Shown here: in pieces, positions 3,718 to 9,761 of the stretch | Layout: every line of letters starts with the position of its first letter | Numbering within the stretch: position 1 is the stretch's first letter | Virus record (IMG/VR): IMGVR_UViG_2703718815_000011 | Location: 1 to 11,313 of that record | DNA from: a virus | Taxonomy: Duplodnaviria > Heunggongvirae > Uroviricota > Caudoviricetes | DNA: 11,313 bases | Direction: 5' to 3' (one strand) | The notes under the pieces: generated by a model | What the model was told of the DNA's origin: nothing | Databases searched by the model: none | The model's input: only the letters and a program-made list of their open reading frames with translations | Position numbers and translations under genes: made by a program

Positions 3718-4023
3718 ATGACATTTACTCAGAGTATTGACCCGCCAGAAACGAATAATGCTGTATTTTGCCTGGCGTATGAATTGTCTGTACAAGCATC
3801 AACAATGGCAAAGGAGAGAGAGCTAACTCCAAGGCAGGCACGTCTCGCACTGGAACTCGCCAGCCGGGTATCAGTAGCAAAAAAAATCGCACCAGCCGTA
3901 ATGGCACGAAACCTGGCTAATGCAATTACAGATGTCAGGTCACTACAACCATACAATTATCATGTCGAAGAGGCATTAGAAAAATTAATCGCTGCTGCGG
4001 ACGCCATCATTGATGAACTGTAA
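3718..4023 (+). CDS. Hypothetical small Ala-rich helical protein, 101 aa; first gene of the early-left operon (the position N occupies in lambda, but no arginine-rich motif)
   Basis: Strong SD AAGGGGAGAG 6-8 nt upstream of the ATG; protein-like composition. Function unknown. Confidence 0.7.
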   Translation: MTFTQSIDPPETNNAVFCLAYELSVQASTMAKERELTPRQARLALELASRVSVAKKIAPAVMARNLANAITDVRSLQPYNYHVEEALEKLIAAADAIIDEL

Positions 4024-4218
4024 TAATTGATATGCGGGAGAATTTCTATTCCTGAGAGACGCATTTTTCACGCCCGGACAACGCCCGGCAATTGCCAGAT
4101 TCAGTTTTTCACGCTGCTCTGGCGTAAGAAGTTTAACAAGTTCTTCAAGAACAAGCGTGGTAGCCTCTAATCTGGCGGAAAGATAATCAATATTTTTGTG
4201 TTGAGATTGAATAGGCAT
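3985..4218 (-). CDS. Hypothetical 77-aa protein on the opposite strand in the sieB-equivalent position; convergent with, and overlapping by 39 nt, the 3718-4023 gene
   Basis: ATG at plus 4216-4218 with TAAGGA SD 7 nt upstream on the minus strand. Candidate extended -10 promoter upstream. Product MPIQSQHKNIDYLSARLEATTLVLEELVKLLTPEQREKLNLAIAG... is soluble and helical; it is not SieB-like (SieB is a membrane protein). Confidence 0.5.
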   Translation of the reverse strand: MPIQSQHKNIDYLSARLEATTLVLEELVKLLTPEQREKLNLAIAGRCPGVKNASLRNRNSPAYQLLQFINDGVRSSD

Positions 4219-4250
4219 AAGCAATTCCTTACTGGTTGTGTGAGAACTCC

Positions 4251-4279
4251 AGTATACCACCGAGCCTGAAGTGGTAAAA
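4251..4279 (-). promoter_or_regulatory. Candidate extended -10 promoter for the 3985-4218 gene (minus-strand TGgTATACT; weak -35 TTTTAC)
   Basis: Minus-strand sequence ...TTTTAC-N17-TATACT with TG at -15/-14, read from the reverse complement of 4251-4279. Weak -35, so low confidence. Confidence 0.3.
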
Positions 4280-4448
4280 AGACAGGCATACAACACGAAG
4301 GCGCATTTCCGGTATCCATAAAGAGTCGGTCTTGTCTGTGAAATTTAAATGGTGGGAGTGCGCCTCCGGTTGTGAATAACAACACTGCTGTGTGTAGTCT
4401 TGGCGGCATCAGTTTTTTCTTGAAGTACGACTGATGTCTGCCCTTTTT

Positions 4449-4594
4449 AAAGTGAATTTTGTGATGCGGTGAATGCGGCTAAGCGCACGCGGCACAGTTA
4501 AAAGCATCAGTGTTATGGGTGGATTATCCGGCGTTAATTGTTAACTGGTTAACGTCACCTGGAGGCACCAGGCACCGCATCACAAAATTCACTT
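4449..4594. repeat. Perfect 22-bp inverted repeat AAGTGAATTTTGTGATGCGGTG (4449-4470) / CACCGCATCACAAAATTCACTT (4573-4594) flanking a 102-bp segment
   Basis: Exact reverse-complement match verified base by base. The right arm ends 22 nt before the ATG of the 4616 gene. The enclosed segment contains GTTAACTGGTTAAC (two palindromic GTTAAC hexamers). Confidence 0.9.
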
Positions 4595-4615
4595 AGTAAC
4601 CAAGAAGGGAATTAT

Positions 4616-4888
4616 ATGCAAGAGATAAGTTTTGAAGTAACAGCAAAAGATGTACAGGTTAAGCCCGATTACAATCAAAAATTATGTATTGAAGTCAATG
4701 GCGTGAAGTTATCAGACCTGATTGATTCAGTTGAAGATAACGACGCTATTATTGAAATGGTTGGAGCCGAAGAAATAGCAGAATACTTTTCAACAGAGGG
4801 GCGTCTTCATGAGCTTCTGGAAAAATTTTCATATCAGGATATCGCTACATTTCTGGAAATTAATGGTTATAAAGTTACCGAGGAATAA
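4616..4888 (+). CDS. Hypothetical highly acidic small protein, 90 aa (about 21 D/E versus 7 K/R)
   Basis: AAGAAGGGA SD 6 nt upstream of the ATG. Charge counted directly from the translation. No family recognised. Confidence 0.7.
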   Translation: MQEISFEVTAKDVQVKPDYNQKLCIEVNGVKLSDLIDSVEDNDAIIEMVGAEEIAEYFSTEGRLHELLEKFSYQDIATFLEINGYKVTEE

Positions 4889-4906: not shown

Positions 4907-5116
4907 ATGGAACGTAATCATCTAACAGCTATCAGTGCCGCACAGAGTAAATTCGCCATCGCTGTATTTTTACAGGATGAAGAAATGTTTGAGCAGGCCA
5001 TTATTCAGTTTGCAATTGCGACCGGGAGTAAAATAAATGAACACTTTGTTCGCTCTTGTCATGACCGTTTTTCTGACATCAGGCGAAACTCAGGATGTTG
5101 TTACCGGAATTTATAA
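4907..5116 (+). CDS. Hypothetical 69-aa ORF; its 3' third overlaps the next gene out of frame
   Basis: AGGTGG SD 4 nt upstream. N-terminal 43 aa look protein-like, but the C-terminal part falls in the overlap with the 5037 gene and looks poor. It could be real, shorter, or spurious. Confidence 0.3.
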   Translation: MERNHLTAISAAQSKFAIAVFLQDEEMFEQAIIQFAIATGSKINEHFVRSCHDRFSDIRRNSGCCYRNL

Positions 5117-5273
5117 CTCCGAATCTGAATGCAAGGCCGCAGCTATTGAGCAAAAAGTAGCTGGTGAATGTTTCCCTGTTGAGAAATTTATCCGGCCTGT
5201 AGATGAAGAAATTCCCGCAGGCCTCACAGGAGAAAATCATGAAAATAAAATGTGGTTACCACCTTTGCAATAA
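5037..5273 (+). CDS. Hypothetical 78-aa protein with N-terminal hydrophobic segment and two Cys; occupies the position of kil/kilR upstream of ydaE
   Basis: GGGAG SD 8 nt upstream of the ATG. N-terminus MNTLFALVMTVFLTSG is hydrophobic without a basic n-region (membrane anchor rather than a classical signal peptide). Assignment as a KilR homologue is positional only; I cannot recall the KilR sequence. Confidence 0.55.
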   Translation: MNTLFALVMTVFLTSGETQDVVTGIYNSESECKAAAIEQKVAGECFPVEKFIRPVDEEIPAGLTGENHENKMWLPPLQ

Positions 5274-5403
5274 AGACGTTGAAGAAAGCAAAACTATTAC
5301 AAGACCACTTCATTTCATGCGTGGAGTTATCCCAACGACGGAAATGAAAAAATATTGTAGTGAAAATTGTGCCGAAAAAGACCAGATGGCACACGAACTT
5401 TAA
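5239..5403 (+). CDS. ydaE: YdaE-like small Cys4 (zinc-binding) protein, 54 aa
   Basis: MKIKCGYHLCNKDVEESKTITRPLHFMRGVIPTTEMKKYCSENCAEKDQMAHEL, with Cys pairs C5/C10 and C40/C44. GGAG SD 6 nt upstream of the ATG at 5239; the track's upstream ATG at 5203 has no SD. Lies between the kil-position gene and racC, as in Rac. Confidence 0.65.
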   Translation: MKIKCGYHLCNKDVEESKTITRPLHFMRGVIPTTEMKKYCSENCAEKDQMAHEL

Positions 5404-5477: not shown

Positions 5478-5753
5478 ATGATTACCAATTATGAAGCCAC
5501 TGTTGTAACTACCGATGACATTGTTCACGAGGTTAATCTGGAAGGAAAGCGTATTGGCTACGTGATTAAAACAGAAAATAAAGAAACCCCATTCACTGTG
5601 GTTGATATCGACGGTCCATCAGGCAACGTAAAAACACTTGATGAAGGTGTCACAAAAATGTGCCTGGTTCACATCGGAAAGAATCTGCCCGCAGAAAAAA
5701 AAGCCGGATTTCTGGCAACTCTGATTGCAATGAAATTAAACGGTGAAATCTGA
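5478..5753 (+). CDS. racC: RacC-like protein, 91 aa, function unknown
   Basis: AAGGAG SD 8 nt upstream of the ATG at 5478. Sequence MITNYEATVVTTDDIVHEVNLEGKRIGYVIK... matches my recollection of Rac RacC. Immediately upstream of recE. Confidence 0.8.
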   Translation: MITNYEATVVTTDDIVHEVNLEGKRIGYVIKTENKETPFTVVDIDGPSGNVKTLDEGVTKMCLVHIGKNLPAEKKAGFLATLIAMKLNGEI

Positions 5754-5758
5754 AAGAA

Positions 5759-5783
5759 ATAGCCTGCGTATGGCGCAGGCTAT
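5759..5783 (+). other. GC-rich hairpin (10-bp stem ATAGCCTGCG / CGCAGGCTAT, 5-nt loop) in the racC-recE intergenic space, with no following U-tract
   Basis: Inverted repeat read directly from sequence. The lack of a T-run argues against an intrinsic terminator and for an RNA stability or processing element. Confidence 0.45.
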
Positions 5784-5854
5784 GAACAGTGTGTATCCGG
5801 CAAGATCATTCACTGAACAAAACGAATTTTAATCTGAGTTGAGGTTAAAAAACA

Positions 5855-8527
5855 ATGAGCACAAAACCACTCTTCCTGTTACGGAAAGCGAAAAAATCAT
5901 CCGGTGAACCTGACGTCGTCCTGTGGGCAAGCGACGATTTTGAATCGACCTGTGCCACTCTGGACTACCTGCTCGTTAAGTCAGGTAAAAAACTGAGCAG
6001 CTATTTTAAACCTGTTGCCACGAATTTTCCTGTCGTTAATGACCTTCCCCCTGAAGGTGAGATCGATTTTACCTGGAGTGAACGCTATCAACTCAGCAAA
6101 GACTCCATGACCTGGGAACTAAAACCGGGAGCAGCGCCAGACGACGTTCACCATCAGGAGAATGCACCGGAAACCGAAGAACCGGCGGGAGGCCAGGAAG
6201 AAAACACACGGGCAGACGCTCACGGGGATTGCCAGGATTGCGAAGTATCTGTATCTACTTTGCGGTTCACACAGCGTCTTCTGCACATTTTTACCTATGC
6301 GGCCGGGGATCGGAAATACCTGCATCATGCCACCCGAGAACAACGCGAACACATTACTGCTCTTGAGATGGATCAGGAAAACAGCTATGTCCAGAATCTG
6401 CTGTTGGCCATACGCGGCATGGCAGAACCGACAACTCTGGATAATGCCGCCCTGCTCCGCCTGACTGATGCAATTAAGGCAGTTTTCTCTATCACGAAAA
6501 AACATCAGCCCTATGAATTTAAGAATTTCATTTCAGCCTGGCTGGATACCGAACACATTGATCGCGGTCTTCTGACAAAAGAATGGCGAAGTGGGAATCG
6601 TGTTTCACGCATCACTCGCACGGCTTCCGGTGCTAATGCTGGCGGCGGGAACCTCACCGATCGCGGCGAAGGTTTCGTCCACGATCTGACGTCACTGGCG
6701 CGCGATGTAGCCACTGGCGTACTGGCCCGTTCAATGGACGTGGACATCTATAACCTTCATCCGGCACACGCTAAACGCATTGAGGAAATTATCGCTGAAA
6801 ATAAACCGCCCTTTTCTGTTTTCCGCGACAAATTCATCACCATGCCTGGCGGGCTGGATTATTCACGCGCCATCGTGGTTGCGTCCGTGAAAGAAGCACC
6901 AATTGGGATCGAGGTCATCCCCGCGCACGTCACTGAATATCTGAACAAAGTACTGACTGAAACCGATCATGCCAACCCTGATCCGGAAATCGTGGATATT
7001 GCCTGCGGTCGCTCCTCTGCCCCGATGCCGCAGCGTGTAACAGAAGAAGGAAAACAGGATGATGAAGAAAAACCGCAACCATCTGAAACAACGGCAGATG
7101 AACAGGGAGAGGCTGAAACAATGGAACCGGACGCAACTGAACATCATCAGGACACGCAGCCGCTGGATGCTCAGTCACAGGTAAATTCTGTTGATGCGAA
7201 ATATCAGGAACTGCGGGCAGAACTCCATGAAGCCCGGAAAAACATTCCATCAAAAAATCCTGTCGATGCCGATAAATTACTTGCTGCATCACGTGGTGAA
7301 TTTGTTGACGGAATTAGCGACCCGAACGATCCGAAATGGGTTAAGGGGATCCAGACTCGCGATTCTGTGTACCAGAACCAGCCAGAAACGGAACAAAACA
7401 CGCCAGAAACGGAAAAAACCAGCCCGGATGTGAAACAACCTGAGCCAGTAGTGCAACAGGAACCGGAAATAGTCTGCAATGCCTGCGGTCAGACTGGCGG
7501 GGATAACTGCCCTGACTGTGGTGCGGTGATGGGCGACGCAACATACCAGGAAACATTCGGTGAAGAGAATCAGGTTGAAGCTAAGGAAAATGATCCGGAG
7601 GAAATGGAAGGCGCTGAACATCCGCACAATGAGAATGCTGGCAGCGATCCGCATCGCGATTGCAGTGATGAAACTGGCGAAGTCGCAGATCCCGTAATCG
7701 TAGAAGACATAGAGCCAGGTATTTATTACGGAATTTCGAATGAGAATTACCACGCGGGTCCCGGTGTCAGTAAGTCTCAGCTCGACGACATTGCTGATAC
7801 TCCGGCACTGTATTTGTGGCGTAAAAATGCCCCCGTGGACACCACAAAGACAAAAACGCTCGATTTAGGAACCGCTTTCCACTGCCGGGTACTTGAACCG
7901 GAAGAATTCAGTAACCGCTTTATCGTAGCACCTGAATTTAACCGCCGTACAAACGCCGGAAAAGAAGAAGAGAAAGCGTTTCTGATGGAATGCGCAAGCA
8001 CAGGAAAAACGGTTATCACTGCGGAAGAAGGCCGGAAAATTGAACTCATGTATCAAAGCGTTATGGCTTTGCCGCTGGGGCAATGGCTTGTTGAAAGCGC
8101 CGGACACGCTGAATCATCAATTTACTGGGAAGATCCTGAAACAGGAATTTTGTGTCGGTGCCGTCCGGACAAAATTATCCCTGAATTTCACTGGATCATG
8201 GACGTGAAAACTACGGCAGATATTCAACGATTCAAAACCGCTTATTACGACTACCGCTATCACGTTCAGGATGCATTCTACAGTGACGGTTATGAAGCAC
8301 AGTTTGGAGTGCAGCCAACTTTCGTTTTTCTGGTTGCCAGCACAACTATTGAATGCGGACGTTATCCGGTTGAAATTTTCATGATGGGCGAAGAAGCAAA
8401 ACTGGCAGGTCAGCTGGAATATCACCGCAATCTGCGAACCCTGGCTGACTGCCTCAATACCGATGAATGGCCAGCTATTAAGACGTTATCACTGCCCCGC
8501 TGGGCTAAGGAATATGCAAATGACTAA
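5855..8527 (+). CDS. recE: Exodeoxyribonuclease VIII (RecE), 890 aa, with C-terminal PD-(D/E)xK exonuclease domain
   Basis: N-terminus [26 protein letters not shown]... and the C-terminal ~300 aa (...[24 protein letters not shown]...[36 protein letters not shown]...) match RecE as I recall it. Its stop overlaps the recT start, as in Rac. Confidence 0.95.
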
Positions 8528-9329
8528 GCAACCACCAATCGCAAAAGCCGATCTGCAAAAAACTCAGGGAAACCGTGCACCAGCAGCAATTAAAAATAAC
8601 GACGTGATTAGTTTTATTAACCAGCCATCAATGAAAGAGCAACTGGCAGCAGCTCTTCCACGCCATATGACGGCTGAACGTATGATCCGTATCGCCACCA
8701 CAGAAATTCGTAAAGTTCCGGCGTTAGGAAACTGTGACACTATGAGTTTTGTCAGTGCAATCGTACAGTGTTCACAGCTCGGACTTGAGCCAGGTAGCGC
8801 CCTCGGTCATGCATATTTACTGCCTTTTGGTAATAAAAACGAAAAGAGCGGTAAAAAAAACGTTCAGCTAATCATTGGCTATCGCGGCATGATTGATCTG
8901 GCTCGCCGTTCAGGTCAAATCGCCAGCCTGTCAGCCCGTGTTGTCCGTGAAGGTGACGAGTTTAATTTCGAATTTGGCCTTGATGAAAAGTTAATACACC
9001 GCCCAGGAGAAAACGAAGATGCCCCGGTTACCCACGTCTATGCTGTCGCAAGACTGAAAGACGGAGGTACTCAGTTTGAAGTTATGACGCGCAAACAGAT
9101 TGAGCTGGTGCGCAGCCAGAGTAAAGCTGGTAATAACGGACCGTGGGTAACTCACTGGGAAGAAATGGCAAAGAAAACGGCTATTCGTCGCCTGTTCAAA
9201 TACCTGCCCGTATCAATTGAGATCCAGCGTGCAGTATCAATGGATGAAAAGGAACCACTGACAATCGATCCTGCAGATTCCTCTGTATTAACCGGGGAAT
9301 ACAGTGTAATCGATAATTCAGAGGAATAA
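8520..9329 (+). CDS. recT: Recombinase RecT (single-strand annealing protein), 269 aa
   Basis: [23 protein letters not shown]...; the ATG at 8520 overlaps the recE stop (ATGACTAA). AAGGA SD upstream. The track's longer 288-aa ORF starts at an upstream in-frame ATG inside recE. Confidence 0.95.
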
Positions 9330-9385: not shown

Positions 9386-9580
9386 ATGAGATATGACAAT
9401 GTTAAACCATGTCCATTTTGTGGTTGTCCATCTGTTACGGTGAAAGCAATTTCAGGATATTACCGGGCAAAATGCAACGGATGCGAATCCCGAACCGGCT
9501 ATGGTGGAAGTGAAAAAGAAGCACTCGAACGATGGAATAAACGAACCACTGGAAATAATAATGGAGGTGTTCATGTATAA
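9386..9580 (+). CDS. ralR: RalR (restriction alleviation protein; reported DNase toxin of a type I toxin-antitoxin pair with the sRNA RalA), 64 aa
   Basis: MRYDNVKPCPFCGCPSVTVKAISGYYRAKCNGCESRTGYGGSEKEALERWNKRTTGNNNGGVHV, with Cys4 motif. Start chosen at 9386 to give the 64-aa product; in-frame ATGs also at 9374 and 9347. Confidence 0.85.
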   Translation: MRYDNVKPCPFCGCPSVTVKAISGYYRAKCNGCESRTGYGGSEKEALERWNKRTTGNNNGGVHV

Positions 9581-9761
9581 AATTACCGCCACTATTGAAA
9601 AGGAAGGTGGCACTCCTACTAACTGGACAAGGTACTCAAAAACAAAATTAACCAAATCAGAATGCGAAAAAATGCTCTCAGGTAAAAAAGAAGCTGGCGT
9701 TTCCAGAGAGCAGAAAGTAAAACTGATAAATTTTAATTGCGAGAAACTTCAGTCGTCGTGA
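9573..9761 (+). CDS. ydaC: YdaC-like small protein, 62 aa, function unknown
   Basis: MYKITATIEKEGGTPTNWTRYSKTKL... GGAGG SD 5 nt upstream of the ATG at 9573. Overlaps the ralR stop by 8 nt. Confidence 0.8.
   Translation: MYKITATIEKEGGTPTNWTRYSKTKLTKSECEKMLSGKKEAGVSREQKVKLINFNCEKLQSS

Follow-up and report, generated by a model that had tools for sequence, protein, structure and literature searches.

What might a small, strongly acidic protein do for the temperate phage that encodes it? The question is raised by an open reading frame (ORF) at positions 4616-4888 of an 11,313-nucleotide (nt) stretch of caudoviricete DNA, IMG/VR record IMGVR_UViG_2703718815_000011, the whole of which is called the window below. 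From composition and context, a first-pass annotation had proposed the 90-amino-acid (aa) product as a candidate DNA-mimic anti-defence factor, an interpretation that our analysis partly supports. The ORF is a genuine gene under constraint, its acidity is a conserved and functional property of a whole protein family, and the gene behaves as a discrete, mobile cassette of phage early operons found beside exonuclease and RecT genes. From these properties we infer, as a tentative reading, that the protein may act as a decoy for a nucleic-acid-binding host protein.

The window matches the chromosome of Escherichia coli STEC005 at 100% identity, where it forms the early region of a Rac-type prophage integrated beside ttcA. 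With genes for the tail, baseplate, head, terminase, lysis and an AB5 toxin, this prophage appears to be complete.

Acidity as a conserved property of an uncharacterised family

By residue count, the product contains 21 Asp/Glu (14 Glu and 7 Asp) and 7 Lys/Arg (6 Lys and 1 Arg), exactly the balance that the first-pass annotation had given, for a net charge of -14, an isoelectric point (pI) of 4.17 and a mass of 10.3 kDa; the small size and strongly acidic composition of the DNA mimic class are both present in this protein. A word-index search returned near-identical E. coli copies only, 14 of 1.84 billion cluster representatives matched in an exhaustive HMMER scan, 12 of them standalone proteins of 90-100 aa, and a profile search placed 38 clusters in the family. 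All clusters with a named source are from Enterobacterales (E. coli, Salmonella, Klebsiella and Citrobacter) and are called 'hypothetical', the remainder being nameless; the RefSeq label of the window protein (WP_001156287.1) is likewise 'hypothetical protein'. Even at only 28-52% identity, family members retain a net charge between -8 and -17 and a pI of 4.05-4.5. In the alignment, the acidic share reaches 70% or more in eight columns (positions 26, 28, 34, 37, 41, 69, 78 and 81) and lies at 40-70% in 14 others; these acidic columns are interleaved with conserved hydrophobic positions and follow an i/i+3/i+4 spacing on the predicted helices. The ratio of nonsynonymous to synonymous substitution rates (dN/dS) among Salmonella alleles is 0.07-0.13, indicating strong purifying selection.

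Because the acidity is conserved at such low identity, recurs in eight strongly acidic columns and is accompanied by a low dN/dS, it is a functional property of the family and not the chance composition of one ORF, and the compositional premise of the mimic proposal is strengthened by this conservation. The same selection, together with a Shine-Dalgarno-like site ahead of the start codon and the restriction of the family to Enterobacterales, identifies the ORF as a genuine gene. A single family member, P0010 (221 aa), has an extra domain, a 124-aa N-terminal extension that could reflect either a true fusion or a merged gene call; this extension has no PHROG match, and the fusion was dropped as a functional clue.

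No solved structure is detectably related to this uncharacterised family. The protein matches PHROG 7311 over its full length (E = 8.7e-18, residues 2-90 against profile positions 4-91 of 92), a family annotated as 'unknown function'. Scans of NCBIfam and PADLOC gave no match, and no Ocr or ArdA match was obtained from Pfam, NCBIfam, PADLOC or the functional families of PHROG. The sole Pfam signal was a sub-threshold similarity to PF25638, DUF5983_N (19.7 bits against a gathering threshold of 27, E = 6.6e-4), spanning residues ~8-42, which correspond to the predicted hairpin and first helix. This domain was matched by 17 of 30 family members at E <= 0.01 (best E 3.8e-6), which makes distant homology of the N-terminal 35 residues to DUF5983_N likely. 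A family profile run against all PDB sequences reached a best E of 0.1, with no sequence or fold match, and Foldseek against BFVD retrieved only unnamed proteins of 66-83 aa (best E 2e-3, template-modelling score 0.55). No match at E <= 1 was found by tblastn in 50,697 deposited phage genomes. Neither sequence nor fold similarity was detected to lambda Gam or T7 gp5.9, and membership in the Ocr, ArdA, Gam, gp5.9 or other characterised families was ruled out by the sequence and fold searches. Homology to the acidic N-terminus of RecE, or to any neighbouring protein, was rejected as well (hmmsearch with filters off, no match at E < 0.1). The earlier impression that the protein resembles no known mimic is borne out by systematic search, and the PDB, Foldseek and profile searches likewise gave no confident homology to a structural or chaperone family.

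The protein had also been described as helical, which holds for part of the chain only. An AlphaFold2 model based on a 30-sequence alignment (mean predicted local distance difference test score, pLDDT, 82.7; predicted template-modelling score, pTM, 0.46) shows an N-terminal beta-hairpin (strands at residues 12-18 and 22-28) followed by five short helices (32-38, 43-49, 51-58, 63-68 and 73-82), amounting to ~42% helix and 16% strand. A homologue at 42% identity has the same predicted topology (pLDDT 77.3, pTM 0.41). The predicted secondary structure is robust across the two models, including the hairpin at residues ~12-28; the modelled tertiary packing is uncertain and would fit an obligate oligomer. 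The conserved acidic columns sit on predicted helix faces, an arrangement that is suggestive only as regards the surface array of carboxylates, usually borne by a dimer, with which DNA mimics copy the phosphate spacing of DNA.

A mobile cassette beside exonuclease and RecT genes

Gene order was compared across 13 genomic contexts and 28 viral contigs, representing at least 10 architectures in four genera. A RecE-family exonuclease gene neighbours the acidic gene in every family context examined, always on the same strand and, apart from one subfamily described next, with the acidic gene at most ~1.4 kb upstream; RecT follows in nearly all of the contexts that extend far enough. In two unrelated prophage backbones that carry the acidic gene, the exonuclease and RecT genes are the only neighbours in common. 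In the exceptional subfamily (E. coli P0044 and Salmonella P0013, 61% identical), the acidic gene is wedged between the genes for a 273-aa RecE-core nuclease and RecT: both junctions read as ATGA overlaps in locus L007, and in the Salmonella loci L040/L041 the gene overlaps the nuclease gene by 4 nt and shares one base with recT. The related prophage of E2348/69 lacks the acidic gene, and there the exonuclease gene directly overlaps that of RecT. A search of viral contigs with P0044 recovered no related loci.

The acidic gene was present in 17 of 5,426 complete E. coli genomes, with all copies at least 99% identical, and is a rare accessory gene in this species. This rarity, the low GC content of the ORF (35.5%, against 46.4% for the window) and the precise insertion between exonuclease and RecT genes that is evident from L007 and E2348/69 show that it behaves as a discrete, mobile cassette.

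In Rac-type and Salmonella lineages, the acidic gene is the first gene of the early-left operon, and in Salmonella it is the first plus-strand gene after the repressor. In the window it is the first ORF after a DicF-like element and a structured leader, a combination found in 4,624 of the 5,426 E. coli genomes. The same leader runs directly into kilR in the Rac prophage of K-12, and in the window the place of kilR is taken by a block comprising the acidic gene, a lambda-type Kil gene and a DUF1482 gene.

The position upstream of ralR, on which the first-pass annotation had drawn, is literally correct, but ralR lies 4.5 kb and seven genes further downstream, with its start at 9386. BLASTP with the RalR of the window found a homologue in E. 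coli Rac-type loci only, and none in the Salmonella, Klebsiella or Citrobacter loci, several of which extend no further than recT or stop shortly after it. As a functional context, the linkage to ralR was rejected because it is not conserved outside E. coli; the conserved partners are a RecE-family exonuclease, RecT and, often, Kil.

One Salmonella locus (L002, serovar India) has two tandem, divergent copies of the acidic gene (5723-5998 and 6001-6276) upstream of KilR. The records of this locus and of L003 are labelled as plasmids (473 kb and 263 kb) and contain chromosome-like genes, for example copD, holE and exoX in L003.

Candidate functions and their rivals

Our preferred reading, to which we assign a probability of roughly 0.35, is that the protein acts early as an accessory decoy, using its conserved acidic helix faces to obstruct a basic surface with which a host protein binds nucleic acid. 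It would be a small cytoplasmic accessory protein that RecE/RecT-type temperate phages express from their early-left operon soon after infection or induction, a timing suggested by the homology of the operon layout to those of Rac and Qin. Acting stoichiometrically, its negative helix faces could occupy the basic surface and so keep the host protein from attacking linear phage DNA or recombination intermediates; enzymes of restriction or BREX type, nucleases of DNA ends and nucleoid proteins are candidate targets. In function, though not in fold, the protein would then be a nucleic-acid mimic comparable to Ocr, ArdA, Gam and gp5.9. The conserved net charge, the purifying selection, the restriction to prophage early operons of Enterobacterales and the cassette behaviour would all be consistent with this role. 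DNA mimicry has been tied to small size and high acidity, among mimics that have no common fold (PMC9836394), and lambdoid recombination loci have been described as hotspots and a reservoir for RecBCD inhibitors and fast-evolving anti-immunity genes (2026 preprint, 10.64898/2026.07.10.737580).

Several points weigh against the decoy reading. Acidity alone is a weak predictor, given that many small acidic proteins are not mimics. The literature on the accession and on PHROG 7311 yielded no characterisation of the family and no experimental data. The low pTM of the models (0.41-0.46) makes any tertiary fold or surface charge pattern tentative. Finally, RecBCD, the most context-specific of the possible targets, is disfavoured by the Chi counts of the prophages that carry the gene.

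These counts bear most directly on the proposal that the protein is a Gam-like factor, binding the DNA-end site of RecBCD, protecting linear phage DNA or recombination substrates and thereby providing the 'missing Red-gamma' of RecET modules. RecET has no equivalent of Red-gamma, although Red-gamma boosts RecET recombination (PMC8313284), and the constant exonuclease neighbour, the nearly constant RecT and the sandwiched, translationally coupled position in the E. coli and Salmonella subfamily would suit such a factor. Small size, acidity and a helical structure are likewise features of Gam and gp5.9, the latter also with a beta element at its N-terminus and a pI of 4.0 (PMC9836394). However, phages without an anti-RecBCD function, including those of the Gifsy-1/RecE type, are rich in top-strand Chi, with at least four sites in 14 of 21, compared with 24 of 202 phages that have such a function (PMC12315714). 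We counted Chi over whole prophages, for which ~0.6 sites per strand are expected from base composition. The STEC005 prophage (L048) has nine sites on the top strand and one on the bottom strand, and the cq9 prophage seven and one; both carry the acidic gene, and they are no poorer in Chi in the active orientation than the Rac-type prophage of strain 190, a non-carrier with four and none. The two carriers are not independent observations, because they share a late-gene backbone. Top-strand Chi sites also lie inside recE in several other carriers. Across the Rac-type prophages L048, L049 and L050, the enrichment is strong and biased to the late-gene strand. A low Chi count on the active strand, the correlate of RecBCD inhibitors, is therefore not what the carriers display, and their lack of depletion argues against RecBCD inhibition. 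Within the early region the picture differs: the 11.3 kb of the window contain zero Chi, and both E. coli carriers are free of Chi over ~12-14 kb around the rec module, like the exceptional anti-RecBCD phages of PMC12315714. The gene is also a rare accessory rather than a core gene of the module, and its product has no sequence or fold similarity to Gam or gp5.9. The idea of a Gam analogue was downgraded on the Chi counts, and we now regard it as distinctly unlikely.

Chi-rich genomes would be compatible with an Arf-like accessory factor that acts on the RecE/RecT of the phage itself and not on the host, modulating the loading of the annealing protein or the interaction between exonuclease and annealase. 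The ATGA overlaps of the exonuclease-acidic gene-RecT operon imply a matched stoichiometry, small hypothetical proteins of Burkholderia RecET operons raise recombination in their native host only (PMC8313284), and P22 Arf is itself a small acidic accessory recombination protein in a rec module (PMC9836394, PMC12315714). Closely related modules nevertheless function without the acidic gene, as indicated by the direct exonuclease-RecT overlap in E2348/69 and by the absence of the gene from K-12 Rac, and in most lineages a distance of 0.9-1.4 kb, occupied by Kil, YdaE and RacC-position genes, separates it from recE downstream. A particular partner that co-evolved with it is disfavoured, since the exonucleases that it accompanies differ widely (273 to 1,017 aa) and the RecT proteins are divergent. 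The tblastn search, in which P22 and hence Arf are presumed and not verified to be among the deposited genomes, gave no match at E <= 1, and we consider an Arf-like role unlikely.

The frequent proximity to Kil would instead suit a partner or modulator of that protein; as an acidic antidote or chaperone, for instance, the product could make a basic KilR less toxic. In E. coli, Salmonella and Klebsiella, Kil comes straight after the acidic gene (gaps of 18, 3 and 2 nt); the KilR-type neighbours, found 2-3 nt after the gene in the Salmonella and Klebsiella relatives, are basic (pI 9.5-10.3), and it is kilR of K-12 Rac that the acidic gene, Kil and DUF1482 block replaces. Yet the Kil of the window is neutral (pI 6.8), KilR of K-12 Rac has no such partner, the adjacent Kil proteins belong to two different families (Lambda_Kil type in the window, KilR type elsewhere), and an adjacent Kil is missing from at least six architectures (L005, L006, L007, L040/41, L042, L043 and L047). 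The antidote idea was downgraded on account of these differing Kil families and of the many members without Kil beside them, and it seems highly improbable. The more specific version of the original proposal, an Ocr- or ArdA-style anti-restriction protein aimed at type I restriction-modification or BREX, draws on the pI of 4.17 and the small size, on the presence of Lar/RalR in the same prophage, and on the first place in the early-left operon of Rac-type and Salmonella lineages, a parallel to T7 gene 0.3, which is the first gene expressed. However, the protein has no sequence or fold relation to Ocr or ArdA, and both ArdA and the elongated Ocr dimer are much larger than a 90-aa protein of short helices. 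With a ralR linkage that is not conserved and no contextual pointer to restriction-modification in particular, we judge this version very unlikely. The remaining probability falls to functions outside the decoy reading and these four rivals.

Small acidic early phage proteins without an assigned function are common, and the present family offers a defined 90-aa candidate with a sharp genomic signature beside exonuclease and RecT genes. If the decoy reading is true, phage nucleic-acid mimics, so far few in number, would include a structurally new family (11 DNA-mimic anti-defence proteins are tallied in the EVADES preprint), and RecE/RecT phages would gain an accessory anti-host function that they are currently thought to lack. 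This would also be relevant to RecET recombineering, which today borrows lambda Gam. RecE/RecT-type temperate phages are at present classed as having no anti-RecBCD or equivalent function, and a bolder proposal is that a new-fold nucleic-acid mimic is their missing antagonist of host nucleases or defences. As a portable cassette able to enter recombination modules, even between the exonuclease and annealase genes, it would shield the ends of phage DNA or the intermediates of recombination against RecBCD or a different nuclease or defence system that senses ends; we hold this to be rather improbable. If the protein is instead an Arf-like cofactor or a Kil modulator, it would shed light on the poorly understood genes of lambdoid early-left operons.

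The surrounding early region and parallels in known systems

Table 1. Features of the window around the acidic gene, with positions counted from the first nucleotide of the window.
Feature	Position	Strand	Remarks
DicF-like small RNA element and terminator-like hairpin	4389..4443	+	Rfam 37.2 bits vs gathering 48, E 1.9e-6
STnc100-like structured 5' leader	4445..4619	+	Rfam 41.4 bits vs gathering 47, E 1.6e-7
Truncated 'DicB' pseudogene, 27 codons	4510..4590	+	PGAP call inside the leader
Shine-Dalgarno-like site AAGAAGGG	4602..4609	+	6 nt before ATG of the acidic ORF; read from the sequence
Acidic 90-aa ORF, WP_001156287.1	4616..4888	+	ATG to TAA; PHROG 7311 match
Lambda-type Kil cell-division inhibitor ORF	4907..5116	+	Pfam Lambda_Kil E 8e-8; 18 nt after the acidic gene
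Acidic, signal-peptide-like DUF1482 ORF	5037..5273	+	overlaps the Kil ORF by 80 nt in another frame
YdaE-family protein	5203..5403	+	Rtr1/RPAP2 Pfam match E 5.3e-10, 39.9 vs 33 bits
recE, exodeoxyribonuclease VIII	5855..8527	+	RecE-family neighbour in every family context examined
recT, annealing protein	8520..9329	+	neighbour in nearly all contexts reaching far enough
RalA small RNA antitoxin, full length	9579..9757	-	Rfam 210 bits; antisense to the DUF1187/ydaC ORF, beside ralR

The leader upstream of the acidic gene (Table 1) is closed by a perfect 22-nt inverted repeat (4450-4471 and 4573-4594), and the segment 4385-4630, which spans the DicF-like element and the leader, has a minimum free energy of -91.3 kcal/mol (z -6.07). 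The long leader stem looks like an RNase III-type processing site, which may separate DicF from the downstream mRNA. The 'DicB' pseudogene called within the leader could be what is left of a dicB allele whose place the acidic gene has taken, or an erroneous call on a conserved RNA sequence. Further upstream, a 101-aa ORF (3718-4023, plus strand) and an antisense ORF of 77-103 aa (3985-4296, minus strand), neither with a family match, hold the position of ydaF/ydaG and sieB in K-12 Rac and mark another replaced accessory slot.

Downstream, the Kil ORF is without annotation in STEC005 and annotated in strain W13-16; because it overlaps the DUF1482 ORF, the true Kil is probably shorter than 69 aa. 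The YdaE-family protein matches, above threshold, Rtr1/RPAP2, a eukaryotic zinc-finger phosphatase family, and in L005, L006 and L047 a YdaE with an N-terminal extension of ~45 aa directly follows the acidic gene. The full-length RecE of the window is also very acidic (156 Asp/Glu against 88 Lys/Arg, pI 4.72), an excess that probably lies largely in its long N-terminal region. The ralR gene belongs to the Lar family (Pfam E 5e-14), and the RalR/RalA type I toxin-antitoxin pair is intact. Genes for an Acb1-family anti-CBASS protein, a scabin-like ADP-ribosyltransferase and the B subunit of a subtilase AB5 toxin are also present in the prophages of STEC005 and cq9.

Among known systems, lambda Gam and T7 gp5.9 resemble the acidic protein as small, highly acidic and mainly helical early phage proteins; gp5.9, with a pI of 4.0, also shares the N-terminal beta element, and both are dimeric mimics of unrelated folds (PMC9836394). 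Gam is, in addition, encoded beside phage exonuclease and annealase genes, as is the acidic gene. The two differ from the acidic protein in that its predicted hairpin and five short helices do not form a coiled coil and there is no sequence or fold similarity, and in that its gene is a rare accessory, not a core gene, of Chi-rich prophages (PMC12315714). T7 Ocr and ArdA, whose logic underlay the mimic proposal, are likewise acidic early decoys for DNA-binding defence enzymes, but their sequences and folds are unrelated, the acidic protein is much smaller, and its context has no link to restriction-modification. Arf of phage P22 is about half the size of the 90-aa protein and accompanies Erf/Abc, not RecE/RecT. 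The likeness here lies in a small acidic protein, suspected of mimicry, inside the recombination module of a temperate phage (PMC9836394; PMC12315714).

The sole detectable sequence relative of the family is DUF5983_N, found in proteins at the YeeW position; DUF5983 is a family encoded downstream of CbtA toxins (PMC10790755), and its proteins are longer, with another C-terminal domain (bioRxiv 10.1101/2024.01.30.577995). In operon layout, the parallel is with DicB of Qin, which occupies the same slot as the first ORF after DicF and a structured leader in a repressor-controlled operon, and a dicB remnant is annotated just upstream of the acidic gene in the window. DicB is a 62-aa division inhibitor. 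It has no homology to the acidic protein, and in the window the division inhibitor is the next gene, Kil.
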